A stretch of DNA of 59,093 nucleotides from Actinomycetota bacterium (GTDB taxonomy: Bacteria > Actinomycetota > Acidimicrobiia > IMCC26256 > VFJJ01): assembly GCA_009886115.1 (NCBI GenBank), contig VFJJ01000142.1:1-59093 (forward strand). The letters run 5' to 3'. Below are positions 1,222 to 38,375 of the stretch, in pieces. A program made the position numbers and the translations under genes. The notes under the pieces are model-generated. The model was given only the letters and a program-made list of their open reading frames with translations. It was not told the DNA's origin and made no database searches. Every line of letters begins with the position of its first letter. Positions within the stretch are counted from its first letter, which is position 1.

Positions 1222-2022
1222 ATGGCTCTCACACCGCAGGCGGCATCGCTCGAAGGGAAGGTGGCTGTCGTCACCGGAGCCGGCGTGGGGATCGGCCGAG
1301 CCATCGCCGAGACCTTCGCCAACTTCGGCGCCGACGTGGCCGTGTGCGACCGTGACCGGGCCAACCTCGACCTCACCGCTGCGGCGATCACAGCGGCGGG
1401 CCGGCAGGTGATCACCGGCGAGCTCGACGTGCGCGACAGGGAAGCGGTCGAGCTTCATGTGGCGCAAGTGGTCGAGCGTTTCGGGCGGATCGACGTGCTC
1501 GTGAACAACGCCGGGGGGACGTTCTTCTCGGCGTTCACCGACGTGAGCGCCCGGGGTCAGGAGTCACTCGTGCGCGAGAACTTCCACTCGGTGACGAATT
1601 TCGTGCGAGCCTGCGTGCCCCACATGCCCGAGGGAGGCTCGATCGTCAACGTCACCTCGATCGAGGCCCATCGGGCCGGGCCCGGATACGCCGTCTATTC
1701 CGCGATGAAGGCTGCGGTCACGAGCCTGACGCAAACCCTGGCTCTGGAGCTCGGGTCGCGATTCATCAGGGTCAACACCATCGCCCCCGATCACATCACC
1801 ACGCCGGGCGTCGGCGTGATGGGCCCGGCGAACGGCCTGCCCCGCCCGGGAACGGCCGACGACTGCGCTGGTGCCGCGGTCTTCCTGGCCAGCGATCTGA
1901 GCGCGTTCGTGACGGGATCGTCGGTGCATGTCGACGGCGGAAACCTGGCTGCCGGAGGCTGGCGCCGCAAGGGTGTTCTGACGTACGACGGCGTCGGGTT
2001 GGGCCCATCGTCACCCCAGTAG
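1222..2022 (+). CDS. SDR family oxidoreductase
   Basis: TGAGVGIG, NNAG, YSAMK, C-terminal VTG..VDGG. Confidence 0.93.
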   Translation: MALTPQAASLEGKVAVVTGAGVGIGRAIAETFANFGADVAVCDRDRANLDLTAAAITAAGRQVITGELDVRDREAVELHVAQVVERFGRIDVLVNNAGGTFFSAFTDVSARGQESLVRENFHSVTNFVRACVPHMPEGGSIVNVTSIEAHRAGPGYAVYSAMKAAVTSLTQTLALELGSRFIRVNTIAPDHITTPGVGVMGPANGLPRPGTADDCAGAAVFLASDLSAFVTGSSVHVDGGNLAAGGWRRKGVLTYDGVGLGPSSPQ

Positions 2023-2053
2023 TCAACACGTGAATACCGAGCGGAGTCAGACC

Positions 2054-2926
2054 ATGAGCGACAGCGAAACCAGGGGTACCAGCGGGGTGAAGTTCGGCGT
2101 GGCCCTGGGGGCCCTGAACCCGGCCTTCCACGTCGAGATCACCCTGCTGGCCGAGGAGCTCGGCTTCGAGTCGGTGTGGATGCCCGAGCACCTCGTGCTG
2201 CCCGTCGCGATGGCCGGTTCGCCGCACGAGGGCGAGGAGCATCCTCCCGTCCCCCCGACGACCCCGGTGTACGACTGCTTCGGATACCTGTGCTACCTGG
2301 CCGGGCGCACGTCGCGGATCCGGCTGGGCTCGCACGTGTACAACCTCGGGCTGCGCCATCCGTTCATCGCGGCACGGGCGATCACGACGCTCGACGTGAT
2401 GTCGGGGGGACGGGCCGAGATCGGCATCGGCGCGAGCTGGCTCGAGAGCGAATGGACGGCCGTCGGGCTCGACTTCGCGACCCGCGGTCGGCGGGTCGAC
2501 GAGAACCTGGCCGTGTGCAAGCGCCTCTGGACCGAGGAGGTGGTCGAGCACCACGGCGAGTTCTCCGACTTCGGCCCGGTCATGTTCGAGCCCAAGCCGA
2601 CCACGAAGCCTCATCCGGCCATCCACGTCGGCGGCGAGTCGGGCGCGGCGCTGCGCAGAGCCGCCCGAGACGGCGACGGTTGGATCGGGATGACCAACAC
2701 GCTCGAATCGGTGGCCGCGCCCGTCGCTCAGCTGCGGGCGTTGCGCGACCGGTACGGGACGGCCGGGAACCGCTTCGAGGTCACCGTGGGCGGCCCGGTC
2801 ACGTCGCACGACGATCTGGCTCGTTGGCGCGACGCGGGTGTCGACCGGCTGGTCGTGTCGCCCTGGAGGCGTTCCCGCGAGGCGGTCGAGGGCCTGAAGG
2901 CCTTCGCCGAGCTCGTCTACGGGTGA
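2054..2926 (+). CDS. LLM-class (probably F420-dependent) oxidoreductase
   Basis: AEELGFESVWMPEH, RIRLG, LRHPF, TLDVMSGGR, IHVGGES..ALRRAA; GGAG upstream of ATG 2054. Confidence 0.9.
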   Translation: MSDSETRGTSGVKFGVALGALNPAFHVEITLLAEELGFESVWMPEHLVLPVAMAGSPHEGEEHPPVPPTTPVYDCFGYLCYLAGRTSRIRLGSHVYNLGLRHPFIAARAITTLDVMSGGRAEIGIGASWLESEWTAVGLDFATRGRRVDENLAVCKRLWTEEVVEHHGEFSDFGPVMFEPKPTTKPHPAIHVGGESGAALRRAARDGDGWIGMTNTLESVAAPVAQLRALRDRYGTAGNRFEVTVGGPVTSHDDLARWRDAGVDRLVVSPWRRSREAVEGLKAFAELVYG

Positions 2927-2988
2927 CAGAGCCCCGACACACCGAGACCCCGACACACCGAGACCCCGACACGCCGAGACCCCGATGT
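2926..2988. repeat. 16-bp tandem repeat (accgagaccccgacac, about 4 copies)
   Basis: Exact units at 2941-2956 and 2957-2972 with degenerate flanking units. Confidence 0.85.
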
Positions 2989-3038
2989 GCCGACACGGAC
3001 TCCACGAGGCTTCCGAGGTTCGGGGATACGGTGACGGG

Positions 3039-3893
3039 GTGATCTCGGTGGTGGTTCCGGCGCGCAACGCAGCGGGTGTGATCGAGGGCCAGTTGGCTGC
3101 CCTTGCTGCGCAGGTCGTCGCCGAGCCGTGGGAGGTGATCGTCGCCGACAACGGCTCCACCGACGACACCGCCGCCGTGGTGGCGGCCTGGGCCGACCGG
3201 CTGCCGGTGCGGGTCGTCGACGCCTCCCTGCGTGCGGGGGTCAACTACGCCCGCAACACCGGGGCCGGTGCTGCGCTCGGCGACCGGGTGTTGTTCTGCG
3301 ATGCCGACGACGAGGTCGAGTCGGGCTGGGTGAGTGCGCTCGCCGGTGGGCTCCGGGACCACGATGGCGTGGGCGGGCGGATCGATCGGCGACGGTTCAC
3401 CGACGTCTCCCGCCAGCGCCAGGGCCTCGTCGTGTCTGACGGGCTCACGCCATGGCCCGGCTACCTGTCATTCGTCACCGGCGCGAACTGCGGCATCCGG
3501 GCCGAGGTGCTCGCGGCGCTCGGAGGCTTCGACGAGGAGTTCTCCAACGGGGGCGACGACGTCGAGATCTCGTGGCGCCTGCAACTCGCTGGGTACGGTC
3601 TGGGCTTCGTGCCCGAAGCGGTGGTGCACTACCGCGAGCGCACCCACGGACGGGCCGCGGCCAAGCAGTCCTACGGCTATGGCCGCCAGGATCCCCATCT
3701 CCACCGCCGGTTCGAGGCCCACGGGATGCCCGGCTCAGGGATCGTCCAAGGGCTCAGGAGCTGGGGCCATCTGCTCGTGCGGGCCCCGAGCTACGTCCGG
3801 ACACCGGCGGGACGGGCCCAGTGGATTCGGAGCGCCAGCCGGCGTGCGGGCCGTATCGCGGGCAGCGTCGCCCACCGGAACCTGTACCTCTGA
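3039..3893 (+). CDS. Glycosyltransferase family 2
   Basis: ISVVVPARN, VADNGSTDDT, ARNTG, FCDADD (DxD), GGFDE, DDVEISWR. Confidence 0.92.
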   Translation: MISVVVPARNAAGVIEGQLAALAAQVVAEPWEVIVADNGSTDDTAAVVAAWADRLPVRVVDASLRAGVNYARNTGAGAALGDRVLFCDADDEVESGWVSALAGGLRDHDGVGGRIDRRRFTDVSRQRQGLVVSDGLTPWPGYLSFVTGANCGIRAEVLAALGGFDEEFSNGGDDVEISWRLQLAGYGLGFVPEAVVHYRERTHGRAAAKQSYGYGRQDPHLHRRFEAHGMPGSGIVQGLRSWGHLLVRAPSYVRTPAGRAQWIRSASRRAGRIAGSVAHRNLYL

Positions 3894-3908
3894 CACGGTG
3901 GTTCGCGA

Positions 3909-5393
3909 TCAGACGAGAGCGGGTCGCGGGTGTCCGTCGATCGCCGCCAACTCGATGCCCAGCCGCGCAGCGATCGTGGGCGCCAGGTCGACGACGTCGA
4001 TCGGGGCCGAACGCGGACCGGGCTCGACCCCGGGCGCTCGCAGCAGCGCCAGGCCGGAGGGGCGATGATCGCCGGAACGGATCCCCTGGTACGACCCACG
4101 CAGCACGCCGACGAGCGGTGAGCGGGCGCTGGTGATCGGGCCATCGCGGCGCCAGTCGACGAGCAGGTCGGGAAGGTCGTCTCGCATCTCGCCCGGGTAC
4201 AGGTCGTCGACGCGCAACACCCTCCGCACGAGGGGTTGGCCGGTGTCGGCGTCCTCGAGCTCGAGGAACCGCTCGCTCAACCAGCTCAGGAGCTCTTCGC
4301 TCTCGGGTCCGGGAGCCACCCGGCCCCGAGGCTCCCGTCCGATCAGGTTGAGCCGCACCGCGCCGAAGAGCTCGTTGTTGGGGATGGGATACACGCGGCG
4401 GGAACCGTCGACGCTCGTGGTCCGCGACGGCGGGTCGCCGGGCCGTCGCCACCGTGAGGCCTCCCGGCGAATCCTGTCGACACGGCGCCGGGCGATCTCG
4501 GCCACGCGGCGGCTGATCGGGGCCCGTCCCGATGCCATGTCGAGGCGCCTCACGATCTCGGCGAAGAGATGATCGCCGTCGTGGTGGGGTCCGATGCCGT
4601 GGCTCAGGAGCACCAGCACCGGGGTGTCGGCGTCGACGGCGTCGATGAGCCGGCCCAGCTCGCGATCGAGTGCCTCGTAGGTGGACTCGAGTGGATCACC
4701 GACTCGAGCGACCAACCCGGGGTCGTGGTCGGGCCAGGTGGGATCGTGCAGGCCCCAGAACTGGTGCCCGGCACAGTGCGACTCGCCGTACACGACGAGG
4801 AACAGGTCCCACGGCTCCCGGGCGAGGAGCTCGAGGCACATGTCGGTCTTGACGACCATCCCCTGGGCCAGGCGATCGCGCAGCTCGGCGTGCTCGCCGC
4901 GCCGCATGTAGCTGTCGCAGCTCCCCTGCACCGGATGGGCGCCGTGGCGGCTCACCAGGTCGTCGCCCAGCGGGCCGGGCGACCACGCGCGAGGGAGCAT
5001 GCGATCGTGTGTGCCCCACTCGATGACCTGCAGGCCGTTGATGTCAGCGGTGAGCGAGCTCAGCGGTGCGTCGAACACGCACACTCGGCGACCCTGGCGT
5101 GACAGCGTGCTCCAGAACGGGGTCGGCGTGATGTCGTTGGGCGTCCGGCGGGCGATCTCGTAGGTGCCGTTCACGAACTGGCGGAAGCAGTAGAAGCCGT
5201 GGCGACCCGGCCAGCGCCCGGTGGCGAACGAGGGCCAGACCGCGCCGACGACGATGCCGTCGGGATTCGTGGTCGGCGCCCAGGCCGACTTCGTGAGCAG
5301 CCGAGCCAGGGACGGCATGCGGCCCTCCCCGGCCAGCCGCCGGGCGAGGCCGGCGTCCATGGCGTCGAGGCCGATCACGAGCATCCCGGTCAT
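3909..5393 (-). CDS. Alkaline phosphatase superfamily protein (type I phosphodiesterase / nucleotide pyrophosphatase-like)
   Basis: VIGLDAMD, WPSFATG..PGRHG, HCAGHQFW, LSHG, GDHRP, DLAPTI. Confidence 0.85.
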   Translation of the reverse strand: MTGMLVIGLDAMDAGLARRLAGEGRMPSLARLLTKSAWAPTTNPDGIVVGAVWPSFATGRWPGRHGFYCFRQFVNGTYEIARRTPNDITPTPFWSTLSRQGRRVCVFDAPLSSLTADINGLQVIEWGTHDRMLPRAWSPGPLGDDLVSRHGAHPVQGSCDSYMRRGEHAELRDRLAQGMVVKTDMCLELLAREPWDLFLVVYGESHCAGHQFWGLHDPTWPDHDPGLVARVGDPLESTYEALDRELGRLIDAVDADTPVLVLLSHGIGPHHDGDHLFAEIVRRLDMASGRAPISRRVAEIARRRVDRIRREASRWRRPGDPPSRTTSVDGSRRVYPIPNNELFGAVRLNLIGREPRGRVAPGPESEELLSWLSERFLELEDADTGQPLVRRVLRVDDLYPGEMRDDLPDLLVDWRRDGPITSARSPLVGVLRGSYQGIRSGDHRPSGLALLRAPGVEPGPRSAPIDVVDLAPTIAARLGIELAAIDGHPRPALV

Positions 5394-5478: not shown

Positions 5479-6438
5479 TCATCTCCGAGTTCCGACATCG
5501 CGATCGGGGTGGGGGCCGTGCCGTCGCCCACGAGCTCCCGGCGTGGTCGAGGCCCATCGCGCCACGGTCGCGCGGCCGATGTGCACGACCGTCCGCAACC
5601 TGGGGCGGGTTCGAAACGACCCCAGGAACAACGCCTGCGCGTGCACGGGATCGCCGGTGGTCAGCGCCATCAGCCCGGCCCGGCACAATCGGAAGGCCCG
5701 AGCCCGGGGATGGGCCGCGAACCAGACCGACTGCTCGTCCATGAAGGCCAGGCTCTCACGGACCCTGACGTCGAGGCCGTTTCCCGAACGCACACCCTGG
5801 TGCAGGCGCACGAGGTATCCGACCCGGTCGTCGGTCGTCACCGGGCTGCGCTGGGCCGTGCGCCACCACCATTCGACGTCCTCCAGCGCTCGCCAGCGCT
5901 CGTCGAAGCGGGACATCACCGTTCGCCGAACCATGGTGGCGCCGAGGCTCGGCGTGAAGCCGTCGAGGATGGTCTCCGCGACGTTGCCTTCAAGTCGGCG
6001 GTGCCGACCGGTCGGGTCGTGGAGGTAGCGCGTGCCGCACACGGCGATCGGACCTCGCCCCAACCCGTCGAGGCCGATGGCGAGACGGTCCGGGCTGAAC
6101 AGGTCGTCGTCGTCGAGAAAGGCGAGCACGTCGCCACGGGAGGCGTCGATCCCGGCGTTGCGAGCCCGAGCCGGGCCCGGATCGCCGTCGAGCCTCAGGA
6201 GCCTGATCCGGGGATCCTCGGGAACCCGTGCCGGGGGATCGGATGCGCTGTCGACGACGATGAGCTCCCAGCCGTCGACCGTCTGCGCCTGCACCGACTC
6301 GATCGCCAGTGCCAGCAGGGCGGGGCGATTGCGGGTGGGGAGGATCACGGTGATCCGGCACGCGTGTGCCTCGGGTGGCCCCATGCTGTTCCTCTGCCCG
6401 GTCACGCGTACATCCAAGCACGGCTGTGCGGCGGTCAT
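5479..6438 (-). CDS. Glycosyltransferase family 2
   Basis: ITVILPTRNR, ELIVVDSAS, ARNAG, FLDDDD, FDE..EDVEW; start codon uncertain. Confidence 0.9.
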   Translation of the reverse strand: MTAAQPCLDVRVTGQRNSMGPPEAHACRITVILPTRNRPALLALAIESVQAQTVDGWELIVVDSASDPPARVPEDPRIRLLRLDGDPGPARARNAGIDASRGDVLAFLDDDDLFSPDRLAIGLDGLGRGPIAVCGTRYLHDPTGRHRRLEGNVAETILDGFTPSLGATMVRRTVMSRFDERWRALEDVEWWWRTAQRSPVTTDDRVGYLVRLHQGVRSGNGLDVRVRESLAFMDEQSVWFAAHPRARAFRLCRAGLMALTTGDPVHAQALFLGSFRTRPRLRTVVHIGRATVARWASTTPGARGRRHGPHPDRDVGTRR

Positions 6439-7884
6439 CTACATCCCCACCCGCCAACGGGCGTGCAGGATCACGTTCGGGTCGTCGGTGACGGCGATCT
6501 CGGAGACTCGTCGGCCGTGATGCTCCCACTGGGCGGCGAGCGAGGCCGCCCGGCTCGCGGGCACCTCCACGAGGAGCTCGTGGGCATCGGAGGTCACCAG
6601 CAGATGCACGACCGTGTCGTTCCACTGGGCCGTCGTGTGCCCGATCGCCACGATGACGTCGGCGCCCGATCGGAGCGCCGCGGCAGCCGCCGGGGCGAAC
6701 GGATCGGCGGCCCGGGTGGTGACGGCGTCGAGCTGGAAGGACTCGGCCAGGGCCGCGGCGGCGGCGATGCGATGGCCGGTGGGCGCAACGACGAGGGACG
6801 CCGCGGCACCCTCCATGCGGGCGAAGGTGGCCGCGAAACCGGCGTCGGGCCCCAGGTCGATGACGTGGCGACCCGACCAGGAGACGTGGGTTCGTACTCG
6901 CTCCCAGGTGGTCTCCCAACCCCGGTGCCCGATCCCGTGCAACCCGACGAGCTCGAAGCCCCACGGCTCGCTGGCTTCGGAAGCGGATCGATCGGTCGCG
7001 CCGAGCTCCCACACGTTGCCGAGCTCGAGCAGGCCGGTGATCTGGCGATCGATCCACGCTTTGTGCTTGACGACGCTCCGTCGCTCGCCCCGCTCGAGGC
7101 GGCGCTGCCACCGTCGGGCGTAGATCCGAGCGAGCGGGCCCGTCGGATGCCGAGCCAGCACCACCGAGCGCACGAGGTTCCTGAACGCCACGGGTGTGCG
7201 GTTGGGCCCGACACCCAGCACGTCACAGGCCAGCGCTCGCAGCCGGGATGCGCGCTGCGCCCGTCCGAAGTCGAGGATGTTCGCGTGCCCGTCGGGGCCC
7301 ACGATGATGTTCCCCACGCTGATGTCGCCGTGGGCCACGCCGGCCAGGTTCGTCCGCACGATCGCGGCGAGCGCCCGGAGGAGTGACACCTCGTTGCCTC
7401 GACCCAGGCCCAGGAGCCGATCGATGGTCTCGCCCTCGATCACCGGGATCCGCAGCATCTCCCAGTCGCCGTCGACCATGGTGTGCGTCGTGGCCAGACC
7501 GGTGCCCCGGATGTGCTCGGCGAGATGACGAGCGACCGCGTGCTCCCTCGTGAGGCCGGCGCCGAGCTTCAGGTGGGCGGCGGGTGTGTGCCGGTAGACC
7601 TTGACGATCTGGCGACCGTCGCGAAAGACCCGTCGTTCGCCGTCGTGCCAGCTCACCGAGATCAGCTCGGCCTTGGGCAGGTGACGTTCCTGGAACCCGC
7701 GCCAGGCCAGGGTGCGCTCGAGGTATTCGGAACGGACGGTTCTGGCGTGCGCGCCCGCTGCCGGCTGCGACGGCTGCGATGAGCCCCTCCCCGGCGCCCT
7801 GTCACGCTCCAGATCGGGCTCCCGGACCAGCGTGGGGCTGGCGGTGACGGGTGCCGTACGGCCGGCTCGTTCCTTCTGGCGCAT
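6439..7884 (-). CDS. Protein-kinase-like (RIO/Kdo-type) domain fused to a SAM-methyltransferase-like domain
   Basis: N-half IVKVY, REH, HGDISVGN, ILDFG; C-half GRHVIDLGPDAG resembles class I MTase motif I. Confidence 0.72.
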   Translation of the reverse strand: MRQKERAGRTAPVTASPTLVREPDLERDRAPGRGSSQPSQPAAGAHARTVRSEYLERTLAWRGFQERHLPKAELISVSWHDGERRVFRDGRQIVKVYRHTPAAHLKLGAGLTREHAVARHLAEHIRGTGLATTHTMVDGDWEMLRIPVIEGETIDRLLGLGRGNEVSLLRALAAIVRTNLAGVAHGDISVGNIIVGPDGHANILDFGRAQRASRLRALACDVLGVGPNRTPVAFRNLVRSVVLARHPTGPLARIYARRWQRRLERGERRSVVKHKAWIDRQITGLLELGNVWELGATDRSASEASEPWGFELVGLHGIGHRGWETTWERVRTHVSWSGRHVIDLGPDAGFAATFARMEGAAASLVVAPTGHRIAAAAALAESFQLDAVTTRAADPFAPAAAAALRSGADVIVAIGHTTAQWNDTVVHLLVTSDAHELLVEVPASRAASLAAQWEHHGRRVSEIAVTDDPNVILHARWRVGM

Positions 7885-7971
7885 TCGGTGTCAATCGACC
7901 AGATCGCCCCATGACTTGAGCGATCGTGCCCCCGGCTCGGACCCCACAGCGCTCGTCAACGGTCCAGTTCG

Positions 7972-9687
7972 TCAGCCCCGAAGCACCGCTCCCGGGAGCG
8001 CTCCCGTGTGACGGCCGTCTCGCAGCATTGCGACGCCGTTGACGTACGTCGCGACGTAGCCTCTGGCGTCGACGACGAGGCGACCGGAATCGGCGGGGAG
8101 GTCGACGACCCACCGGGGATCGCCCGCCGCCAGGCGCGGGCGGTCGATGACGTTGATGTCGGCCCAGGAGCCCGGTCGAAGGGCACCGCGATCGCGAATC
8201 CCGTGGATCGTGGCCGGGATCGACGAGAGGCGGGCGACGGCCTGCTCGATGCTCAGCACGCCCGATGGCACCCATTCGCTCAGCAGCCGGGTCGGGTAGT
8301 CGGCCCCGACGAACGAGGCGAGATGGGCTCCGCCATCGGATGACCCGGCCATCACCAGCGGATGGCGGATGAGGATCTCGAGCGCCTCCTGACGGTCGCG
8401 AGACACCGGGGCGTTGAGTGTGAACACCGTCTCCAGGTTCTCGTCGAGCGACACGTCGAGATAGCAGTCGAAGGGGTCCTGGCCGCCCCGCTGGGCTGCG
8501 AGCTGCGGGACGGTCAGCCCCACCCAATGACCGTGCCGCTCGGGATCGGCGACCGACGCGCAACACACGATGTCCCACACGAACGAGAACGCCCGGCCGG
8601 TCGGATCGGCCAGCTCGGTGCGCATCTGCTCGCGCACGACGACATCGCGGAGCCGCTGCGAGCGCTCGGGCTCGGGCAGGCACAACGTGTCGCGCCAGGT
8701 CGGCATCTCGTCGTAGAGGAACGTGCTCCCGAGCGCGAAGAACACGCCCTGCTTGTTCGCGGCGAACATCGGGAAGATGCGGAGCCCGTCGCGTTGGGCC
8801 TCCTCGGCGAACGCCAGCGAGTCGCTCCAGCCGTTGGGGGCGTTGTGCATCCGCGTGAGCGTGTTGAGGTTCACCGGCTTGCCCGAGACCTCGGCCATGC
8901 GCCGGATGAGCGCTCGGTCGGAGGCGTCGTAGCCCACGAGGAACGTGCGGGGGATGAACTCGATCGCCCCGTGGTCGAACTCGGCGAGCACGGCCGCCAG
9001 GGCCACGATCTCGTCGGGCGCGGCCAGGTTCGACGGCACGGGTCGGCCGTCGTGCGCTTGATGGATGTCGAGTTGACTCGACGTGAAACCCATCGCTCCC
9101 TCGGCCATGGCGCTCCGCACGAGCGCGGCCATGGCCGTGGTCTCGTCGTCGGTCGCGACGCGCTCCTGGGCCTCGTCGCCCATCACCATGCGCCGCACGG
9201 CCGAGTGACCCACGTTGAATCCGGCGTTGACCCCGATACGCCCGTCGAGTCCGGCCATGAGATCGCCGACACCGCCACCCTCGAAGTCGACGCCGGCCTG
9301 CAGGGCTGCCGCGGGCATGCCCTCGACCCGGCTGAGCATCTGCAGCAACCACCCGACGTCGTCGGGTGTCGCCGGCGCGATCGTGAACCCGCAGTTGCCC
9401 GTGAGCAGCGTGGTGACGCCGTGCCACGAGGCCGGCGAGCACGTGGGCTCGAAGTGGAGCTGGGCGTCGTAGTGGGTGTGGATGTCGACGAAGCCGGGGG
9501 TGACGAGAAGGCCCTCGGCGTCGAGCACCTCGACCGCGGCCGCTCGCTCGGCTCCGGTGACCCGCCCGATCTTGGCGATGCGCCCGTCGCGCACGGCGAC
9601 ATCGGCGATGTACGACGGCAGGCCGGTGCCGTCGACGACCGTCCCGCGGGTGACGACGAGGTCGAACGGGGCCGGGCGGTCGCTCAC
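7972..9687 (-). CDS. N-acyl-D-amino-acid deacylase family amidohydrolase
   Basis: GTVVDGTG, PGFVDIHTHYD, HGVTT..GNCG, SDGGAH, ADINVID; GTG start overlaps the upstream TGA (GTGA). Confidence 0.9.
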   Translation of the reverse strand: MSDRPAPFDLVVTRGTVVDGTGLPSYIADVAVRDGRIAKIGRVTGAERAAAVEVLDAEGLLVTPGFVDIHTHYDAQLHFEPTCSPASWHGVTTLLTGNCGFTIAPATPDDVGWLLQMLSRVEGMPAAALQAGVDFEGGGVGDLMAGLDGRIGVNAGFNVGHSAVRRMVMGDEAQERVATDDETTAMAALVRSAMAEGAMGFTSSQLDIHQAHDGRPVPSNLAAPDEIVALAAVLAEFDHGAIEFIPRTFLVGYDASDRALIRRMAEVSGKPVNLNTLTRMHNAPNGWSDSLAFAEEAQRDGLRIFPMFAANKQGVFFALGSTFLYDEMPTWRDTLCLPEPERSQRLRDVVVREQMRTELADPTGRAFSFVWDIVCCASVADPERHGHWVGLTVPQLAAQRGGQDPFDCYLDVSLDENLETVFTLNAPVSRDRQEALEILIRHPLVMAGSSDGGAHLASFVGADYPTRLLSEWVPSGVLSIEQAVARLSSIPATIHGIRDRGALRPGSWADINVIDRPRLAAGDPRWVVDLPADSGRLVVDARGYVATYVNGVAMLRDGRHTGALPGAVLRG

Positions 9688-10814
9688 GGTTGCTCCATCC
9701 CGTACAACGCCAAGGCGTTGAGCCCGACGAGCCCTGCTCGAGACGTCGGCGTCATCGCCTCGGCGTGCTCGATGAGCTCGTCGACGACACCGGGGTACTT
9801 CGCGTCGCTGTGCGGGAAGTCGGACGCCCAGATCATGGTGTGCTGGCCGATGCGGTGGCCGAGGAGCGCAGCGGTGTGCTCGCCGGGGTCGAAGCTCACC
9901 CAGCACTGGCGGCGGAAGTACTCCGACGGCTTGAGCGTGAGGTCGGGGACCTGCCAACCGTACGACTCGATGAACTCGTCCATCCGGTCCATCCAGTGCG
10001 CCACCCATCCGCCTCCGCACTCGAGCACACCGATCTTCAGCTCCGGGTAGCGCTCGAGCACCCCGCCCCAGACCAGGTTCGACAGCGTCAGGTGCTGATC
10101 GAAGAACAGGATGGTCGCGTGGTGGGTGCCTGGGGCCATGAGGTCGGCCATGCGGCGACTGGTTCCGTCGACGTCCCACGGCCCGGCCGGATGGAACGCC
10201 AGCGGTAGCCCTTCCTCGATGAGCGCTTCGTAGACGGGGTGGAAGTCGGCGTGGTGGAGTTGCCGGCCCAGGAAGGGATTGGGTCGGCACCACCCGGCCT
10301 TCATGCCGAGGCGGGCGATGCGGTGCACCTCCTCGGCGGCTGCGGCGGGATCCTGCATGGGCAGCACGCCCGTGCCGATCAGACGCCCGGGATCGGCCTG
10401 GCACCAGTCGGCGAGCCAGTCGTTGTAGACCCGGCAATGGGCGACGGCGAGCTCGGGGTCTTCGATGCCTGCGAGCTTCAGGCTCAGCCCCCCGTACATC
10501 ACCGCAACGTCGATGCCCTCGGCGTCGAGCACCTTCAGACGCTCGTTGGCATCGAAACCGGCAGGGTTGAGGTCTTCGTAGTGCGTGCCTTGACCGAGGT
10601 TCACGTACGGGGTTCCGGCGTTGCCCAGCCCGGCGAGGCCCCTGTCGGTGAGCACCTTGTCCTCGACGAGGCACGTGTCGAAGCCGGTGTCGGCGTTCCA
10701 GCGCAAGCGCATCGCCCGGTCGCGCATCGAGGTCGGCAGGTTGTCCTCCCACAGCCGGGGGGGCTCGCAGAGATGCCCGTCGGCATCGACGACGTAGTGC
10801 CCGTGGTCGTTCAT
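9684..10814 (-). CDS. Amidohydrolase_2 family protein
   Basis: VDADGH, YNDWLADW, FHP, LECGGGW, ASDFPHSD. Confidence 0.9.
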   Translation of the reverse strand: MNDHGHYVVDADGHLCEPPRLWEDNLPTSMRDRAMRLRWNADTGFDTCLVEDKVLTDRGLAGLGNAGTPYVNLGQGTHYEDLNPAGFDANERLKVLDAEGIDVAVMYGGLSLKLAGIEDPELAVAHCRVYNDWLADWCQADPGRLIGTGVLPMQDPAAAAEEVHRIARLGMKAGWCRPNPFLGRQLHHADFHPVYEALIEEGLPLAFHPAGPWDVDGTSRRMADLMAPGTHHATILFFDQHLTLSNLVWGGVLERYPELKIGVLECGGGWVAHWMDRMDEFIESYGWQVPDLTLKPSEYFRRQCWVSFDPGEHTAALLGHRIGQHTMIWASDFPHSDAKYPGVVDELIEHAEAMTPTSRAGLVGLNALALYGMEQP

Positions 10815-10920
10815 GGCCCTCCCGGGAAGCTCACGCGTGTCCAGCCGTCAGGGTGCGCTCGCGACCGTCGAGCGTCAACCACGTGCTTGTTATCGGACGC
10901 GTGACGGCTACCGTGGGGCC

Positions 10921-11766
10921 GTGGCTTCGACCCCGTCGGTCAACACCCGACGTGCCTATCGTGCCGACTGGGCCGACTTCGTCGCGTGGTGCGCCTCGCA
11001 GCGCCGGCGGGCCCTGCCGGCGACCCCGGCCACCGTGGCGGCGTACGTCGCGTGGTCGGGAGAGCGCCACCGACCGTCGACGGTCCATCGGCGCCTGGCT
11101 GCGATCTCGTTCGAGCACGCCGCCGTGGGTGCGCCGTCGCCGTGTCGGCACGACGGCGTTCGCGCCGCCGACGCCCTGGTCGCCTGGCACGGGCGTGACC
11201 TGCGCTCGCCGGCGGCGCCGGCGACGGTCGACCACGTGCTCTCGATCGTGCGCTGCTTCGACGAATCGGCGGCCGGGAGGCGTGATCACGCGCTCGTGCT
11301 CGTGATGTTCGGGGCCGGCCTGCGCCGGGCCCAGGTCGCGGCGCTCGATCTCGCAGACGTGCGTGTCGGGAGACGATCACTCCGCATCGCAGTTCCCGCC
11401 CGTCCCGAGATCCTCGTTCCGGCGGGCTCGAGACCGGAGCTGTGCGCGGTCACGGCATGGCGGGCCTGGCTCCGATTGCGATCGGTGCCCACGCCCGTTC
11501 GGGACCCGGGACCGGTTCCGGCGTTCTGCCCGGTCGATCGGTTCGACCGCATCCAGCCGGGCCGACTCTCCGATCGCGGGGTGTCGCGGGTGGTCGCTCG
11601 TGCTGCTGTGGCCGCAGGAATCGATCCTCACCAGATCACGACAGGTTCGTTGCGAGCTGGGCTGGTGAGGGTGGCCAAGGCGAGGGGCGTCGCCGACGAC
11701 ACGATCATGCGTCAGACGGGGCATCGCCAGGCGCGGCGTGTTCGGGAGCTCTCCCGGAGTCGCTGA
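10921..11766 (+). CDS. Cre-like tyrosine recombinase homolog with degenerate catalytic residues
   Basis: NTRRAYRADW..F..WC N-domain, RRLAAIS, RDHAL..GLRR, SLRAG, IMRQTGH; catalytic K, H and Y not found. Confidence 0.82.
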   Translation: MASTPSVNTRRAYRADWADFVAWCASQRRRALPATPATVAAYVAWSGERHRPSTVHRRLAAISFEHAAVGAPSPCRHDGVRAADALVAWHGRDLRSPAAPATVDHVLSIVRCFDESAAGRRDHALVLVMFGAGLRRAQVAALDLADVRVGRRSLRIAVPARPEILVPAGSRPELCAVTAWRAWLRLRSVPTPVRDPGPVPAFCPVDRFDRIQPGRLSDRGVSRVVARAAVAAGIDPHQITTGSLRAGLVRVAKARGVADDTIMRQTGHRQARRVRELSRSR

Positions 11767-11778
11767 GCCCGGTCAACC

Positions 11779-13428
11779 TCAGGCGCTGCGGTTGGTGCCG
11801 CCGGGGTAGGCGCCCCCGCCGAACTGCTCGTCGAGCGCGTCGTAGTCGACCAGGAAACCCTTGCGGGGCAAGGCGTCGATGAACTCGACGGTGCGAGGCT
11901 TCTTGTACGAGGCGATCCGGGTGCGGCAGTGCTCGATGAGCTCCTCGGCCGTGACGGACGGGCTGCCGGCGACAGGGTTGCCGTCGTTGCCGTCGCTGCT
12001 GTCGCTGCCGTCGTTGCCGTCGTTGCCGTCGCGCAGCACGACGATGGCCTTCACCGACTGGGTCCACCGGTCGTCGGGCACGCCGATGATCGCCACGTCG
12101 GCGACTGCGGGATGGGTGCGCAGACAGCTCTCGACCTCGGCCGGGTAGATGTTCTCGGCGGCCGACTTGAGCATGCGGCCCTTGGGTCCGATGAACGAGA
12201 TCGAACCGTCGGCTTCCCGCCGGCCCAGGTCGTTGGTGCGGTACCAGCCGTTGCTGGTGCGCCGGGCGTTCTCGTCGGCCCGGTCCCAGTAGCCGTTCAT
12301 GACCGTGAGGCCGCGCACGGCGATCTCGCCGACGTCGCCGTGCCGGCACTCGGCACCGTCGTCGTCGAGGATGCGGATCGACGTGACCGGCGACGCTCGC
12401 CCATGGGTCCCGAGGGGCCTGCTGGCCGGATCGTCGGGGTCGTCGAACGCGGTGAACGTGGTCATGCCCATCACCTCGGTCTGACCGAATCCGCCCGGGC
12501 GCCGCCCCCACGGGCTCTCGTCGGGCGACGTCATCGCGACCCACTCGGGACGGCCGCCCAGGATCCGCAGCGACGAGAGGTCGTAGCGCCCGTCACGGTT
12601 CGCCTCGACGATCTGGTCGATCGTGGGGCCCAGGATGTAGGCGCCGGTGCAGCGCTCCCGGTCGATCAGCTCGCACAGCTCCTCGGCCACGACCCGCCTG
12701 ACGAACACGTTGGTGCCGGCCATGTGGAAGGTCGCCAGCGTGAACATGAAGCAGCCGATGTGGAAGAGCGGCCCCGAGCACAGGTAGCGGTACTGCGGGG
12801 TGATCTGCTGGGCCATGGCGATCACGAGGTCCTGGCTGATGATCGCCAGATGGCTGAGCTGGGCGCCGTTGGGCCGGCCCGAGAACGCGGCCGTGTAGAT
12901 CTGCAGGACGGGGAGCTCGGCGCCGACCTCCATCTCGGGATCGTCGGCGGCGCCCGAGGCGAGGAACGCCTCGTACGAATCTGCTGCCGAATCGGCGCCG
13001 GCCGGGTGCACGGCGGTGTCGTGGCGCAGCCAGCGGGCATCAGACGTACGGGCCAACGCCCGTCCGGCCCGTACGTCTTCGCCGACCTCCTCCTCCTGCC
13101 AGATCACGATGGCCGGCGCGGAGTCGTCGATGACGAAGGCCAGCTCCTCGGGGGTCTGGCGCCAGTTCACCGGGCACAAGACGGCGCCGATCTTGGCGCA
13201 GGCGAGCAGGGCCTCCATGATGCGGAAGGAGTTCTGGCCCAACCAGAGCACCCGGCCGCCGACGCCGACTCCATGGGCGACGAGGGCGTTGGCGAGGCGA
13301 CTCACACGATCGTCGAGCTCGAGATAGGTGAGCCTGGTGGAGCCGTCGACGACGGCAGTCTGGAGCGGCCACGAGCGACGGTGCTCGCGGATGATGTCGC
13401 CGAGCGTGAGGTTGCGGATGGAGTCCAT
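11779..13428 (-). CDS. Acyl-CoA synthetase (AMP-binding)
   Basis: YTAAFSGRPNG (variant P-loop), FGQTE, WYRTNDLG, ENIYPAEVE, YKKPR. Confidence 0.9.
   Translation of the reverse strand: MDSIRNLTLGDIIREHRRSWPLQTAVVDGSTRLTYLELDDRVSRLANALVAHGVGVGGRVLWLGQNSFRIMEALLACAKIGAVLCPVNWRQTPEELAFVIDDSAPAIVIWQEEEVGEDVRAGRALARTSDARWLRHDTAVHPAGADSAADSYEAFLASGAADDPEMEVGAELPVLQIYTAAFSGRPNGAQLSHLAIISQDLVIAMAQQITPQYRYLCSGPLFHIGCFMFTLATFHMAGTNVFVRRVVAEELCELIDRERCTGAYILGPTIDQIVEANRDGRYDLSSLRILGGRPEWVAMTSPDESPWGRRPGGFGQTEVMGMTTFTAFDDPDDPASRPLGTHGRASPVTSIRILDDDGAECRHGDVGEIAVRGLTVMNGYWDRADENARRTSNGWYRTNDLGRREADGSISFIGPKGRMLKSAAENIYPAEVESCLRTHPAVADVAIIGVPDDRWTQSVKAIVVLRDGNDGNDGSDSSDGNDGNPVAGSPSVTAEELIEHCRTRIASYKKPRTVEFIDALPRKGFLVDYDALDEQFGGGAYPGGTNRSA
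11977..12030. repeat. In-frame 9-bp tandem repeat x6 (DGN/DGS/DSS)
   Basis: gttgccgtc and variants, inside the ligase C-terminal domain. Confidence 0.85.
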
Positions 13429-26048: not shown

Positions 26049-26230
26049 GCCCCGACGGTACGCCAGAGTTGACACCTCGGGCAGCGAGCAGTGAGCATCG
26101 CCGCTGGCGAGCGTTGAACGACGGGCCCCGGGCGACGAACGCGCTGGTCGATCGACACGGATGGCGCCGGGGCTGGTGCTCGTCGGGCGTCTCCAGCGGC
26201 GGGTCTGGGAGCGGGTCAGGGAGCGGGCAC

Positions 26231-26656
26231 ATGGGCGAGCGGAAGTTGACGGGGATGGACGTGCACGTGGGCGATACCGGCCCTCCGGTCGTGCACACGC
26301 TCACGCGTACCGACCTGGTCATGTACGCGGGCGCCTCGGGCGACTTCAACCCGATGCACTCCGACGACGTCGCGGCTCGTGCTGGGGGCCTGCCGGGCGT
26401 GTTCGGGCACGGGATGTTCTCGGCCGCTCTGCTCGCCCGGGCGATCACCGACTACGTGGGTGTCGGCAACCTCACGAGCTACCAGGTCCGCTTCACCCGC
26501 CAGACCTGGCCCGGCGAGGTGCTCACGAGCTCGGTCACGGTGGTCGGGGCACGGGCCGTCGACGGTGCGCATCTCGTCGACCTCGAGTGCCGGCTGAGCA
26601 ACGAGGCGGGGGAGGTCAAGGTCGAGGGGCGAGCCGTCGCCGCTCTGGCGCCGTGA
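26231..26656 (+). CDS. MaoC family (R)-enoyl-CoA hydratase
   Basis: YAGASGDFNPMH hydratase-2 motif, FGHGM. Confidence 0.9.
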   Translation: MGERKLTGMDVHVGDTGPPVVHTLTRTDLVMYAGASGDFNPMHSDDVAARAGGLPGVFGHGMFSAALLARAITDYVGVGNLTSYQVRFTRQTWPGEVLTSSVTVVGARAVDGAHLVDLECRLSNEAGEVKVEGRAVAALAP

Positions 26657-26815
26657 TCCTCGGGGTCCGCCGACGCTCGCCGCCGGCTGACGCTCGCCGC
26701 TGCTTCGTCACTGGCTTCGTCGCTGGCGATCAGCGCCGGGATACCGTGCCCCGAATGCGCGCTGCGCACCTGCGGTACCCGTCTCGTCCACCGCCCGTCA
26801 GACTGCGAGTCAGCC

Positions 26816-27232
26816 ATGGCATCAGGACTCCGCTTCGACCTCCCGACGATCGACGACGAGACCCGGCCGTTCTGGGACGGCTGCAGCCAAGGCATGCTCC
26901 GGATCAAGCGCTGCCTGGCCTGTCGCAAGGTCTTCCACTACCCCCGCCCGTTCTGTCCCACCTGTTGGAGCGACGACGTGGAGTGGTTCACGGCATCGGG
27001 ACGGGGCACCGTCTACACCTACTCCATCGTCCACGTGAACGATCTGCCGCCGTGGGCCGAGCGGGTGCCGTACATCGCGGCGATCGTCGAGCTCGAGGAG
27101 GGGCCGCGCATCATGACCAACGTGATCGAGTGCGCCTTCGACGACGTGCGCTGCGGGCTCCCGGTCGAGGTGAGCTTCAAGGAGCACGCAGACGAGCTCT
27201 TCATCCCGGTGTTCAAGCCGGCGACGAGCTGA
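26816..27232 (+). CDS. DUF35 Zn-ribbon/OB-fold protein
   Basis: PFWDG, C..C, YPRPFCPTC, SGRGTVYTYS, VELEEGPR. Confidence 0.92.
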   Translation: MASGLRFDLPTIDDETRPFWDGCSQGMLRIKRCLACRKVFHYPRPFCPTCWSDDVEWFTASGRGTVYTYSIVHVNDLPPWAERVPYIAAIVELEEGPRIMTNVIECAFDDVRCGLPVEVSFKEHADELFIPVFKPATS

Positions 27233-27262
27233 GGATCTGAGGATGCTGAGCATGCTGAGCAT
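27228..27262. repeat. 9-bp tandem repeat (gctgagsat, about 4 copies)
   Basis: gctgaggat ctgaggat gctgagcat gctgagcat. Confidence 0.75.
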
Positions 27263-27295
27263 GGCTCGTCTGTGGGCGCGTCGAGCGGGGGGCTC

Positions 27296-27724
27296 ATGAG
27301 CGACTGGAGCTTCCGCTGGGAGGCCCACCTCCACGACGTGTTCCCTCGCCTCTCGGACGACCTCTCGGCGTTGCTGGCCCGCATCGACGACCTCCCGGTG
27401 ATCGACCCCAAGACCCGCGAGCTCATTCGCCTGGTGTGCTCGGTGGCGACCCGGGGCCCGGCCGGGATCGAGCGTCACGCCATGCTGGCCCGCGAGTTCG
27501 GTGCCGGGTGGGACGAGGTGCTCGGTGCCATCGTATTGACCATGCCGGCGCTCGGCCTCCAGACCGTCGTCGATGCCATCGTCCCTGCCCGCAAGGGTTT
27601 CGACGCTGCGCCACTCGACGATCCGAGCGACGACGAGCCCGAGCCCGGTGCTCCGACCGATGCCGTCGACACGCCCGATGCCATCGATGCCGTCGACGCC
27701 GCCGATCCGATCGGAGCACCATGA
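27296..27724 (+). CDS. Carboxymuconolactone decarboxylase/AhpD-like protein
   Basis: IDPKTRELI, H...A...GA..DEV pattern; no CxxC. Confidence 0.78.
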   Translation: MSDWSFRWEAHLHDVFPRLSDDLSALLARIDDLPVIDPKTRELIRLVCSVATRGPAGIERHAMLAREFGAGWDEVLGAIVLTMPALGLQTVVDAIVPARKGFDAAPLDDPSDDEPEPGAPTDAVDTPDAIDAVDAADPIGAP

Positions 27725-28146
27725 GCGAGTCGGGGTCGCCGCGCGATCACCGCATCCTGCCCAAGGTCACAGCGACCAACGAGCACTACTGGCGCGGTGG
27801 TGAGCACGGCACGCTCGTGCTCCTGCGCTGTCGCAGCTGCGGGTACCGGCTCCATCCCCCGACGCCCGTGTGCCCGCAGTGCCTGGGCCGTGATCTGGCG
27901 CCCGAGGCCGTCTCGGGACGGGCGACCGTCGCCACGTTCACGATCAACCACCAGCCCTGGTACCCGGGGCTCGAGGTGCCGTTCGTGCTGGCGATCGTCG
28001 AGCTCGACGAGCAGCCCGACGTGCGCATCACCACGAACATCGTCAACTGCCCGATCCCCGATGTGCGCATCGGGATGCGGGTGCAGGTCGTGTTCAGGGC
28101 CTACGACGACGTCTGGATCCCCTTCTTCGAACCCGAGGTGGCCTGA
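27721..28146 (+). CDS. DUF35 Zn-ribbon/OB-fold protein
   Basis: CRSC, HPP.PVCPQC, SGRATV, VELDEQ; ATGA overlap with the upstream gene. Confidence 0.9.
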   Translation: MSESGSPRDHRILPKVTATNEHYWRGGEHGTLVLLRCRSCGYRLHPPTPVCPQCLGRDLAPEAVSGRATVATFTINHQPWYPGLEVPFVLAIVELDEQPDVRITTNIVNCPIPDVRIGMRVQVVFRAYDDVWIPFFEPEVA

Positions 28147-38299: not shown

Positions 38300-38375
38300 T
38301 CGCAATGATTCCGGTCGGGCTGGTCGCCCCGGTTCCCTGTCCCCGTGGGGTGTGCAAGGTCCCGGTAGTCACATC

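Follow-up and report, generated by a model that had tools for sequence, protein, structure and literature searches.

A Cre-like protein with an incomplete active site, a single retained recombination-site arm and a divergent amidohydrolase operon: a candidate exapted regulator in Acidimicrobiia

Strand cleavage by tyrosine recombinases needs the catalytic residues R-K-H-R-H/W plus a nucleophilic tyrosine. Some of these enzymes are encoded directly beside their own sites, as are XerS at difSL and the integron integrase IntI at attI, and in integrons divergent promoters are located at the attI site. One paper (PMC2951348) reportedly gives an example of an integrase that represses its own promoter. 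Integrases are likewise said to repress their own synthesis in the discussion of PMC10516654, according to which MrpR (YopR) of phage SPbeta has the tyrosine-recombinase fold but no longer works as a recombinase and serves as a repressor. MrpR and SroF are presented as DNA-binding master repressors of SPbeta-like phages that have lost catalytic residues (PMC10516654; bioRxiv 10.1101/2025.11.27.690993), the tyrosine of MrpR being kept, in the former account, for stability and not for catalysis. Crypton-derived genes (DUF3504) and ALOG domains are described as parts of tyrosine recombinases that were domesticated to serve as DNA-binding regulators (PMC3212892, PMC3537659, PMC13465315); these are eukaryotic, belong to another branch of the superfamily and are not known to retain a cognate site. 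The phage repressors and the eukaryotic Crypton-derived genes thus document the exaptation of recombinases as regulators, but are not known to show how protein and DNA site change together.

We analysed a window of 59,093 nucleotides (contig VFJJ01000142.1 of assembly GCA_009886115.1, an Actinomycetota bacterium), in which a plus-strand gene at 10921..11766 encodes a Cre-like protein of 281 aa. By sequence and by its two-domain clamp fold, this protein belongs to the tyrosine recombinase superfamily. A first-pass annotation of the sequence had proposed alignment to integrase models and structure prediction as checks, and both agree with this assignment: the Pfam domains Phage_integrase (PF00589; 33.1 bits against a cut-off of 27.1) and Phage_int_SAM_1 (PF02899; 23.7 against 22.3) score above their cut-offs, and the predicted structure is a two-domain Cre-like clamp that is confident over the whole protein (pLDDT 95.3, pTM 0.85). 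The best PDB matches of the predicted model in Foldseek are Cre-DNA complexes (TM 0.73-0.76), and a profile of the clade described below matches Cre with an E value of 1.4e-18. Cre/loxP of phage P1 is therefore the closest solved relative by profile and fold, and the likeness extends to the DNA, as intact family members carry lox-like sites with two inverted arms of about 14 bp around 7 bp. In contrast to Cre, to which it is about 20% identical, the window protein lacks the Lys hairpin, His-II, the nucleophilic Tyr and the C-terminal tail; unlike loxP, its site is one-armed and occurs once in the genome, and the gene is inherited vertically and stands among metabolic genes. XerS and IntI are catalytically complete and act on two-arm sites, neither of which holds for the window protein and its site. 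The NCBIfam equivalog cut-offs for XerC (39.8 against 335) and XerD (38.8 against 330) are missed by a wide margin, and the protein scores far under the cut-offs of the NCBIfam integron models.

The open frame on the plus strand spans 10813..11766 without a stop or frameshift and counts 317 aa from its ATG, with TGA at 11764-11766 as the stop codon. Translation of the 281-aa protein likely starts at GTG 10921, because the ortholog from the same genus has an in-frame TAG three codons ahead of its aligned GTG, the nearest metagenomic homolog is itself 281 aa long with the aligned Val as its first residue, and a TAnnnT hexamer stands 6 nt 5' of GTG 10921. The in-frame 5' extension at 10813..10920, which contains the regulatory spacer, is probably not translated; conservation of the spacer is at the DNA level, and its motif lies in differing frames among loci. 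The intact frame of about 281 aa reported in the first-pass annotation thus stands, as does its length, whereas the start given there (10815) is only approximate. An indel error hiding a Tyr-bearing C terminus had also been considered in that annotation. In a comparison based on assembled contigs only, an independent DNA contig (run X5) covers 10600-11900 with 9 substitutions and no gaps, X6 contigs are identical to the window over 11578-11763, and the same-genus ortholog ends in VRELTR, which together exclude such an artefact; no tyrosine is restored by the independent contigs. RNA-library contigs lie on both genes (X7 on 10612-10812 and 10966-11248, and a short X8 piece on 11384-11420), which does not prove transcription. 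The intervening 10813-10965, including the spacer, has no RNA-library contig cover and is uninformative either way.

Alignment to intact relatives confirmed that all three catalytic positions are changed, as had been proposed from the sequence of the window. A shortened beta-hairpin, LRIAVPARPEILVP (residues 154-167; 11380..11421), replaces the hairpin that carries the catalytic Lys, with VPARPE (residues 158-163) standing where intact relatives have the loop RRSKTDQEGxGR; the Cre counterpart is GRTKTLVS. HSLR of intact relatives reads G242-S-L-R245 (11644..11655), with Gly in place of His-II and Arg-II retained, and RRYIR reads RELSR, which places L277 (11749..11751) at the position of the nucleophilic Tyr, 4 residues from the protein end. 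Arg-I (R135), Arg-II (R245) and His-III (H268) are still present. With the Lys hairpin deleted and G242 and L277 at two further positions, the protein does not have the full R-K-H-R-H/W-Y set. The intact relatives also have a 17-aa tail past the Tyr, mostly ending in ..NAAxxxGL.

The window gene is one of 25 related loci (the genome-contig locus set plus the window, overlapping duplicate loci L010-L015 not being counted), and all 24 titled ones are Actinomycetota MAGs, mostly titled Acidimicrobiia. In a tree from which the truncated or aberrant rows L033, L046, L060, L065 and L075, plus L082, were left out, 33 hairpin-less rows are separated by a branch with SH-aLRT 100 from 54 intact rows drawn from many phyla, which points to a single origin of the hairpin-less proteins as one monophyletic clade. 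The hairpin xRxSKTDQEGxGR and the tail are absent in all 25 loci, which places the clade outside the RRSKTDQ-hairpin Cre-like subfamily. The earlier description of a targeted loss of three residues stands for the Lys hairpin and His-II, which are missing in 25/25 genomic members, but is overstated for the Tyr, which is kept in 22 and lost in three (the window, L017 and L081) as well as in the metagenomic P0003, P0004 and P0012; Tyr loss is restricted to the window genus and a few other lineages. Three members (L024, L027 and L064) have lost Arg-I besides the Lys hairpin and His-II. That lineages lost Tyr or Arg-I yet stayed in the conserved gene cassette suggests a function independent of the active site.

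Most clade members keep both Arg residues and His-III (Arg-I in 22/25, Arg-II and His-III in nearly all), and the turn of the shortened hairpin contains an Arg, R161 in the window protein, in 25/25. Together with the frequent Tyr, this makes residual chemistry possible in those members, and the protein could be a residual or partner-dependent recombinase, either a non-cleaving partner of another tyrosine recombinase that occupies the left half, much as XerC and XerD share dif, or an enzyme in which the hairpin Arg replaces Lys in Tyr-bearing members. The 11 other Phage_integrase matches in the genome are consistent with this reading, which we nevertheless regard as improbable. The window protein and its same-genus ortholog are Tyr-less yet under purifying selection in the same synteny, the further catalytic losses differ between lineages, and the tail conserved in intact relatives is absent. 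The genome also encodes canonical, full-motif XerD-like (320 bits) and XerC-like (269 bits) recombinases in genes of their own.

The gene is not a decaying copy but is under purifying selection. Against the same-genus ortholog its dN/dS is 0.24, compared with 0.035-0.28 for 12 flanking genes, and values across 11 further clade pairs are 0.10-0.36; the frame is intact in 25/25 loci, at identities down to 38% and even where dS exceeds 1. The check proposed from the window alone, whether the Lys, His and Tyr losses are conserved under purifying selection and in synteny, is thereby borne out for Lys and His, the synteny being 25/25. A functionless relic, in which a dead integrase gene is retained only for the amidohydrolase promoter DNA and another factor binds the motif, would fit the fact that this is the fastest-evolving gene of the region (64% identity against 72-96% for all 12 flanking genes, dS 1.16 against 0.24-0.72), that GC3 falls to 0.73 in its C-terminal, catalytic half, and that it has no recognisable ligand-sensing domain. 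The selection data, from 12 pairs in all, and a structural model that is confident throughout have already largely shown this reading to be wrong, and we give it very little credence.

As first annotated, the gene is divergent from an amidohydrolase pair across a 106-bp spacer. The first gene of the pair, Amidohydro_2 (9684..10814, minus strand), has its ATG at 10814 and is followed by a D-aminoacylase-like Amidohydro_3 gene (7972..9672, minus strand, start approximate). Because antisense frames confounded all-frame ORF clustering in this GC-rich DNA, neighbourhood gene calls were made by Pfam on selected ORFs. A divergent Amidohydro_2-Amidohydro_3 neighbour was found in 25/25 clade loci and in 0/56 intact-type loci; Amidohydro_3 is visible behind Amidohydro_2 in 24 of the 25, the contig of the remaining locus ending too early to show it. 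Nine of 41 genomes in the order have an Amidohydro_2 ortholog; the clade gene stands beside it in eight of these and is absent from every genome that lacks the ortholog. The restriction of this cassette to 8/41 genomes argues further against a recombinase role. In the ninth genome (L104) the operon is present with neither the clade gene nor the motif adjoining it, which counts against the relic reading, as the motif is absent together with the gene. NCBIfam has no family for the Amidohydro_2 protein, and its matches to the Amidohydro_3 protein are all to general amidohydrolase models and below threshold. The absence of phage or ICE genes noted in the first-pass annotation was upheld, in that no mobile-element family was matched among 50 window ORFs scanned and no tRNA was found in the window.

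The intact relatives, whose genes are probably mobile, have a TCCGATAA-N7-TTATCGGA palindrome with arms of about 14 bp just upstream of their own genes. It is exact in L032, L035, L037 and L047 and has at most 2 mismatches in 9 more intact-type loci. The pattern GATAA-N6-8-TTATC is found in the 450 bp ahead of the gene in 25/56 intact-type loci, with 7 matches in the other 465 kb, and in 0/24 clade loci. The window spacer contains a single retained arm of such a site, TTATCGGACGCGTGAC at 10890..10905 on the plus strand with the core TTATCGGA at 10890-10897, which we propose as the binding site of one monomer. Ahead of it, GTGCTTG (10883..10889) occupies the place of the ancestral central spacer, as judged from the geometry of the TCCGATAA-N7-TTATCGGA sites; the consensus of these 7 bases over the clade loci is GTGCCAG, and there is one strain variant (10883 G>A). 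The 14 bases at 10869..10882 would represent the decayed left arm, in which 4/14 bases of the mirror arm are retained and only GGTC still mirrors the right arm. The clade site is thus one-armed, where a recombinase target would have two inverted arms flanking a spacer of 6-8 bp, and a partner site.

Across the clade, the block that holds GTTATCGGAC in the window is conserved in 25/25 loci, the core reading TTATCGGA in 20, TTATCGCA in four and TTATCAAA in one. CAG follows 3 nt past the core in 19/25 loci, and GTCAA stands 11 nt ahead of it in 23/25. Compared with the same-genus ortholog, the arm region is identical at 30/33 positions while the rest of the spacer has diverged; the outer arm has diverged in the window genus, with CGTG or CCTG instead of CCAG. 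A half-site at 10889-10898 had been suggested as a speculation in the first-pass annotation, and its conservation in 25/25 loci and its match to one palindrome arm of the intact relatives make it the best-supported part of that reading. In the window itself, TTATCGGA with at most one mismatch was observed 10 times against 15.4 expected, so that a lone GTTATCGGAC in one window is unremarkable and the significance stems from cross-genome conservation. TTATCGGA occurs three times in the 5.4-Mb genome, and AGTTATCGGA once in the complete 3.6-Mb chromosome of a relative. A further GTTATCGGAC in the genome, near position 11324 of contig C37, was taken as chance, since the flanking blocks are absent and it lies upstream of an unrelated long ORF. 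With no second arm in the complete chromosome of the relative and no flanked copy in the window genome, there is no partner site for recombination, and with its few remaining mirror-arm bases the left block reads as a -35 element; the 7-bp spacing kept between the conserved left block and the right arm is what a recombinase reading would have in its favour here.

The conserved block could also be a structured RNA or hairpin instead of a protein-binding site. Short complementary runs stand on either side of the motif in some loci (GCGTC..GACGC in the window and AAGGGT..ACCCTT in one relative), but a covarying hairpin around the motif was dropped as a candidate after a consensus fold of 25 segments gave 0 pairs. 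A search of 10600-11100 against Rfam at E values up to 10 returned two chance-level rows elsewhere and none on the motif, and the block matches the arms of the relatives' DNA palindromes. We consider an RNA element extremely improbable.

A scan of 10600-12000 for sigma-70 promoters (E. coli-type consensus) and terminators returned 0 sites, and the promoter assignments therefore derive entirely from cross-genome conservation and spacing. Within the left block, GTCAAC at 10874-10879 reads TTGAC(G) on the minus strand and is the putative -35 of the amidohydrolase promoter, GTCAA keeping its fixed distance in the 23 loci mentioned above. The corresponding -10 would be CACCCT (10850..10855, minus strand) at a fixed spacing of 17 nt; it is a weak -10 hexamer, with the A at position 2 conserved in 25/25 loci and the T at position 6 in 22/25. 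On the plus strand, TACCGT at 10909..10914, the hexamer 6 nt ahead of GTG 10921, is the candidate -10 of the Cre-like gene's own promoter, which would yield a leaderless mRNA; TAnnnT is found 7-18 nt past the core in 15/25 loci, with ATG or GTG 4-9 nt later in 13/25. The arm at 10890-10905 would thus lie between two divergent promoters, at about -16 to -31 of its own and at about -47 to -62 of the amidohydrolase promoter. Binding at the former position, which overlaps the gene's own promoter, would repress the Cre-like gene, and binding at the latter would activate or repress the amidohydrolase promoter.

Overlap of the arm with the gene's own promoter would equally suit a decoy or inhibitor that binds the arms of incoming intact-family elements or forms dead complexes with their integrases, its own site being only autoregulatory. 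The arm sequence is common to intact, multi-phylum and presumably mobile relatives, and intact-type copies are found in the same order (L016). Such a role, which we think unlikely, leaves the 25/25 amidohydrolase linkage and the phyletic co-occurrence unexplained. Neither the Cre-like protein nor either amidohydrolase matched a PADLOC family, and no intact subfamily member was found in the window genome, where the query protein matched only its own gene.

We favour, as the probable reading, exaptation of a recombinase that would now bind the single arm left to it and regulate both itself and the amidohydrolase operon. In the proposed history, an Acidimicrobiia ancestor would have acquired a Cre-like integrase with a palindromic site (arm, 7-bp spacer, arm) upstream of the integrase gene, and one copy would have become fixed next to the Amidohydro_2-Amidohydro_3 operon. 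After fixation the Lys hairpin, His-II and the C-terminal tail would have disappeared from the protein, while the left arm decayed into the -35 of the operon promoter and the right arm stayed nearly unchanged, to be clamped at 10890-10905 by a single monomer. That a recombinase should bind arms lying over its own promoter is a likely pre-adaptation, although self-repressing integrases, unlike the clade, remain active recombinases of mobile elements. Some other factor could be what conserves the arm. The more specific proposal that a cellular transcription factor and its operator arose jointly, out of a Cre-like recombinase and the lox-like site of that enzyme, with a monomeric clamp controlling two divergent promoters, is tentative, at slightly short of an even chance. 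Selection, synteny, fold and the conserved arm support the repurposing suggested in the first-pass annotation, for which binding and regulation are the predicted parts. Among the three roles named there, local regulator fits best, a nucleoid protein is a poor fit to a site that is unique in the genome, and a recombinase inhibitor is unlikely.

The window protein resembles MrpR and SroF in combining the tyrosine-recombinase fold with a disabled active site. MrpR (8A0A) is missing from the 21 PDB sequences that the clade profile matches at E <= 0.001, so that the likeness is one of kind and not of family membership. As described in its source, MrpR is phage-encoded, acts at many sites with a repeated element, keeps lysogeny and lacks both Arg residues; the window protein is chromosomal, keeps both and would act at a single site on two hydrolase genes. 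Also unlike MrpR, its candidate operator can be traced to an ancestral recombination site. The window clade looks like an independent, cellular case of a recombinase-fold regulator. No earlier description of the clade was found in open-access papers and bioRxiv. If the proposal of a jointly derived factor and operator is true, bacteria would here have their first local regulator of a metabolic operon to descend from a recombinase, with all intermediates readable in living relatives. Both the protein and its DNA site are traceable, from two-arm palindromes in intact relatives to one arm in a vertically inherited clade, which opens the protein-site question to direct testing on 60 bp of DNA and a protein of 281 aa. 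The clade would also offer a natural single-arm, non-cleaving Cre-like DNA binder, as binding is predicted. The database source names of the clade genes are XerD, integrase or site-specific recombinase, and genes so named would falsely signal a mobile element in Acidimicrobiia genomes.

The recombinase-like reading frame (10813..11766, plus strand) is open for 317 codons, and its real start is most likely the GTG at 10921, which gives a product of 281 aa. This assignment is based on an in-frame TAG three codons before the aligned GTG in the same-genus ortholog, on the closest metagenomic homolog, which is also 281 aa long and begins at the aligned Val, and on a TAnnnT hexamer (TACCGT, 10909-10914) located 6 nt before the GTG. 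Pfam models identify a Phage_integrase domain (33.1 bits, cut-off 27.1) and an N-terminal SAM-like core-binding domain (23.7 bits, cut-off 22.3); the NCBIfam Xer models all fall below their cut-offs (39-48 bits vs 279-335). An AlphaFold2 model based on an alignment of 124 sequences (pLDDT 95.3, pTM 0.85) has Cre-DNA complexes as its top PDB matches (TM 0.73-0.76, approximately 20% identity), and a profile of the clade, that is, the hairpin-less relatives of this protein, matches Cre (E 1.4e-18) ahead of XerD (E 1.4e-11), so the label "Cre-like" in the first-pass annotation was correct. The window genome encodes separate XerD-like and XerC-like proteins with full motifs, and a dimer-resolution role for this protein is therefore not needed.

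Alignment to intact relatives, which feature an RRSKTDQ-type Lys hairpin, revealed that Arg-I (R135), Arg-II (R245) and His-III (H268) are kept. The hairpin xRRSKTDQEGxGR is replaced by VPARPE, which is nine residues shorter and has no Lys, the His-II of HSLR is G242, and the Tyr of RRYIR is L277. The protein terminates four residues past L277; intact relatives carry a 17-residue tail beyond the Tyr, mostly ending in ..NAAxxxGL. The annotation's description of an intact frame with an altered Lys loop, HxxR His and Tyr is thus confirmed. An assembly error does not account for this C-terminus: a DNA contig from an independent study covers 10600-11900 with nine substitutions and no gaps, contigs from a further sequencing run match 11578-11763 exactly, and the same-genus ortholog likewise ends in VRELTR, which excludes an indel as the cause of the missing Tyr-bearing end. 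In addition, only 12 nt separate the stop codon from the end of a convergent acyl-CoA ligase gene, which leaves no room for a longer C-terminus.

A clade-profile search of one-genome-per-species contigs provided 80 loci, 24 of which encode a hairpin-less protein (25 with the window); the titles of these 24 are all Actinomycetota MAGs, mostly Acidimicrobiia, with one labelled Bifidobacteriaceae. The annotation had proposed testing whether the loss of Lys, His and Tyr is conserved, which proved true for the hairpin Lys and His-II (absent in 25/25 loci) but not for the Tyr, which is kept in 22/25 and missing from the window, L017 and the long-branched L081. Three of eight metagenomic clade members (P0003, P0004 and P0012) also lack the Tyr, and Arg-I is additionally lost in three related loci (L024, L027 and L064). 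The Tyr that most members keep could reflect a residual or partner-dependent recombinase, a reading considered improbable. A quick maximum-likelihood tree was built on 87 rows after exclusion of six truncated or aberrant ones. A branch supported at SH-aLRT 100 separates the 33 hairpin-less rows from the 54 intact rows, which represent Planctomycetota, Pseudomonadota, Acidobacteriota, Bacillota and further phyla. When 1.84 billion representatives were searched exhaustively with a profile, 4,445 proteins had E values up to 1e-30, and the clade accounts for eight clusters among the best 150 of these. Within a large and presumably mobile family scattered over phyla, the clade thus represents a small, lineage-restricted offshoot.

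The window and a same-genus genome are collinear over 15 genes, where the recombinase-like protein shares 64% identity and the flanking proteins 72-96%. Nei-Gojobori estimates for this pair gave a dN/dS of 0.24 for the recombinase-like gene, compared with 0.035-0.28 for 12 flanking genes, and a dS of 1.16 compared with 0.24-0.72, which is two to three times that of the flanking genes. Across 11 further clade pairs, dN/dS is 0.10-0.36 for the recombinase-like gene and 0.04-0.28 for the adjacent Amidohydro_2 gene, and the Tyr-less pair shows no relaxation of selection compared with the Tyr-bearing pairs. A relic without function is very unlikely given this purifying selection. GC3 is 0.89 over the first half of the gene and drops to 0.73 over its C-terminal half. 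The same-genus collinear region also contains an inserted small ribbon-helix-helix (CopG-type) gene (L010:1651-1947), for which no counterpart was called in the window.

Comparison of 25 motif-aligned spacers revealed a common block, AGGnTC - N17 - GTCAAC - N5 - GCCAG - TTATCGGA - CnCCAG, whose core is TTATCGGA in 20 loci, TTATCGCA in four and TTATCAAA in one; GTCAA lies 11 nt before the core in 23/25 loci and CAG 3 nt after it in 19/25. The window and its same-genus ortholog agree at 30/33 positions of the block, and the rest of the spacer aligns poorly. The reading frame of the motif within the upstream extension differs between loci, which indicates that the DNA and not a protein is conserved; that the block acts as an RNA structure is barely credible. 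A subclade of five loci titled Acidimicrobiaceae (L034, L038, L043, L044 and L058) has its own hairpin variant, RDxxGxVV-R, and all five carry GTCAAG; four contain TTATCGCA, with L038 retaining TTATCGGA, which may represent a joint change of protein and site. On the minus strand, the left part of the block reads TTGAC(G/C) - N17 - nAnCCT (A in 25/25, T in 22/25), and the Amidohydro_2 start comes next. In the plus orientation, TAnnnT occurs 7-18 nt past the core in 15/25 loci, with an ATG or GTG 4-9 nt further on in 13/25, a geometry typical of leaderless mRNA. These elements could constitute divergent promoters; a promoter consensus scan of 10600-12000 called nothing.

Intact relatives have a palindrome immediately upstream of their genes, with arms extending to approximately 14 bp, such as CTGACCTCCGATAA gcttcga TTATCGGAGGTCAG in L032 and TTCTGGCGCGCGATAA tggaatg TTATCGCGCGCCAGAA in L016. 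The form TCCGATAA-N7-TTATCGGA is exact in L032 (4718-4740), L035 (4748-4770), L037 (2317-2339) and L047 (1409-1431), among other lox-like sites with 7-bp spacers, and is found with at most two mismatches in nine more loci. GATAA-N6-8-TTATC is found in the 450 bp preceding the gene in 25/56 intact-type loci, seven times in the remaining 465 kb, and in none of the 24 clade loci. Judged by this match, the clade motif TTATCGGA-CnCCAG appears to be one complete arm of the ancestral site, with the seven bases preceding the core apparently occupying the place of the former central spacer. GGTC is all that is left of the mirror arm; the block around it can now be read as the -35 of the amidohydrolase promoter. 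The retained half-site, offered in the annotation as speculation, has become its best-supported part. The arm is essentially unique and has no partner site for recombination: the 5.4-Mb genome contains TTATCGGA three times, and the complete 3.6-Mb chromosome of a Tyr-bearing relative contains AGTTATCGGA once. The sole other GTTATCGGAC of the window genome (contig C37, near 11324) has no flanking blocks and lies in an AT-richer spacer, upstream of a long ORF beginning with a globin-like segment. The spacer gcatcca is common to L035, L037 and L047, whose MAGs are of Planctomycetota and Alphaproteobacteria, and this suggests an element that has recently moved between phyla; the distance from site to gene is 2.7 kb in L037 and 3.6 kb in L047. 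Beside the intact relative in L035 are genes for a SIR2_2-domain protein and a MazG_C and 5-hmdU DNA kinase pair (1337-4498 and 6356-8350), which resemble defence or DNA-modification cargo.

Amidohydro_2 is divergent from the recombinase-like gene in 25/25 clade loci and is followed by Amidohydro_3 in 24, the remaining one being cut by a contig end; homologs of either are absent from all 56 intact-type loci. An Amidohydro_2 ortholog (at least 60% identity) is present in 9/41 genomes of the order and adjoins the clade gene in eight of these. None of the genomes without the ortholog contains a clade gene, the match in G037 being of intact type. In the ninth genome (L104; 62% and 56% identity for Amidohydro_2 and Amidohydro_3), the operon directly follows another gene on the same strand, and both the recombinase-like gene and, in adjacent DNA, the motif are absent. 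Outer neighbours vary, often an SDR and elsewhere TetR, cupredoxin or acyl-CoA ligase. As the annotation had stated for phage and ICE genes, no mobile-element family was found among 50 window ORFs scanned, and the window has no tRNA. A decoy against related integrases is improbable, as such a role would leave this operon linkage unexplained.

We consider it reasonably probable that the protein binds DNA site-specifically without catalysis and controls both its own gene and the operon. This reading accords with the retained clamp fold and its phosphate-holding Arg, Arg and His, with the loss of Lys, His-II and tail everywhere and of Tyr or Arg-I in scattered lineages, with purifying selection throughout, with one conserved arm between two divergent promoter-like elements, and with strict linkage to one operon. 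The arm (10890-10905) would span approximately -16 to -31 relative to the gene's own start and -47 to -62 relative to the inferred amidohydrolase start near 10843. The repurposing proposed in the annotation is thereby supported. The case is computational only but unusually complete, and a small protein plus 60 bp of DNA would suffice to test it.

Parallels in eukaryotes are the Crypton-derived and ALOG domains. The most similar case in kind is MrpR (YopR) from phage SPbeta, a repressor that binds a repeated element; its recombinase fold keeps only three of the seven catalytic residues, and the retained Tyr affects stability (PMC10516654). SroF of SPbeta-related phages also binds DNA through an integrase-like fold (bioRxiv 10.1101/2025.11.27.690993). 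Unlike MrpR, the window protein is cellular, has a single site, is tied to metabolic genes and has a putative operator traceable to an ancestral site; the clade profile did not match the MrpR structure in the PDB, which points to an independent exaptation. No comparable case appears in the consulted sections of a review of exapted mobile-element genes (PMC8987985) or of a classification of tyrosine recombinases (PMC8138268), and no description of the hairpin-less clade was found in open-access papers and bioRxiv.

Taken as a whole, the window holds genes for lipid- or steroid-type catabolism, including two sets of ChsH2-type OB/zinc-ribbon, thiolase-like and MaoC genes (26069-29372 and 37103-38807). 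Together with a P450 and four genes for acyl-CoA ligases, these sets suggest a neighbourhood for sterol or branched-lipid side-chain degradation. The convergent acyl-CoA ligase (minus strand, 11779-13428) contains an Asp/Gly/Asn/Ser run (..DGNDGNDGSDSSDGNDGN..) at 11960-12050, which is encoded by near-repeats of GCCGTCGTT and falls within the match to the AMP-binding C-terminal domain model.
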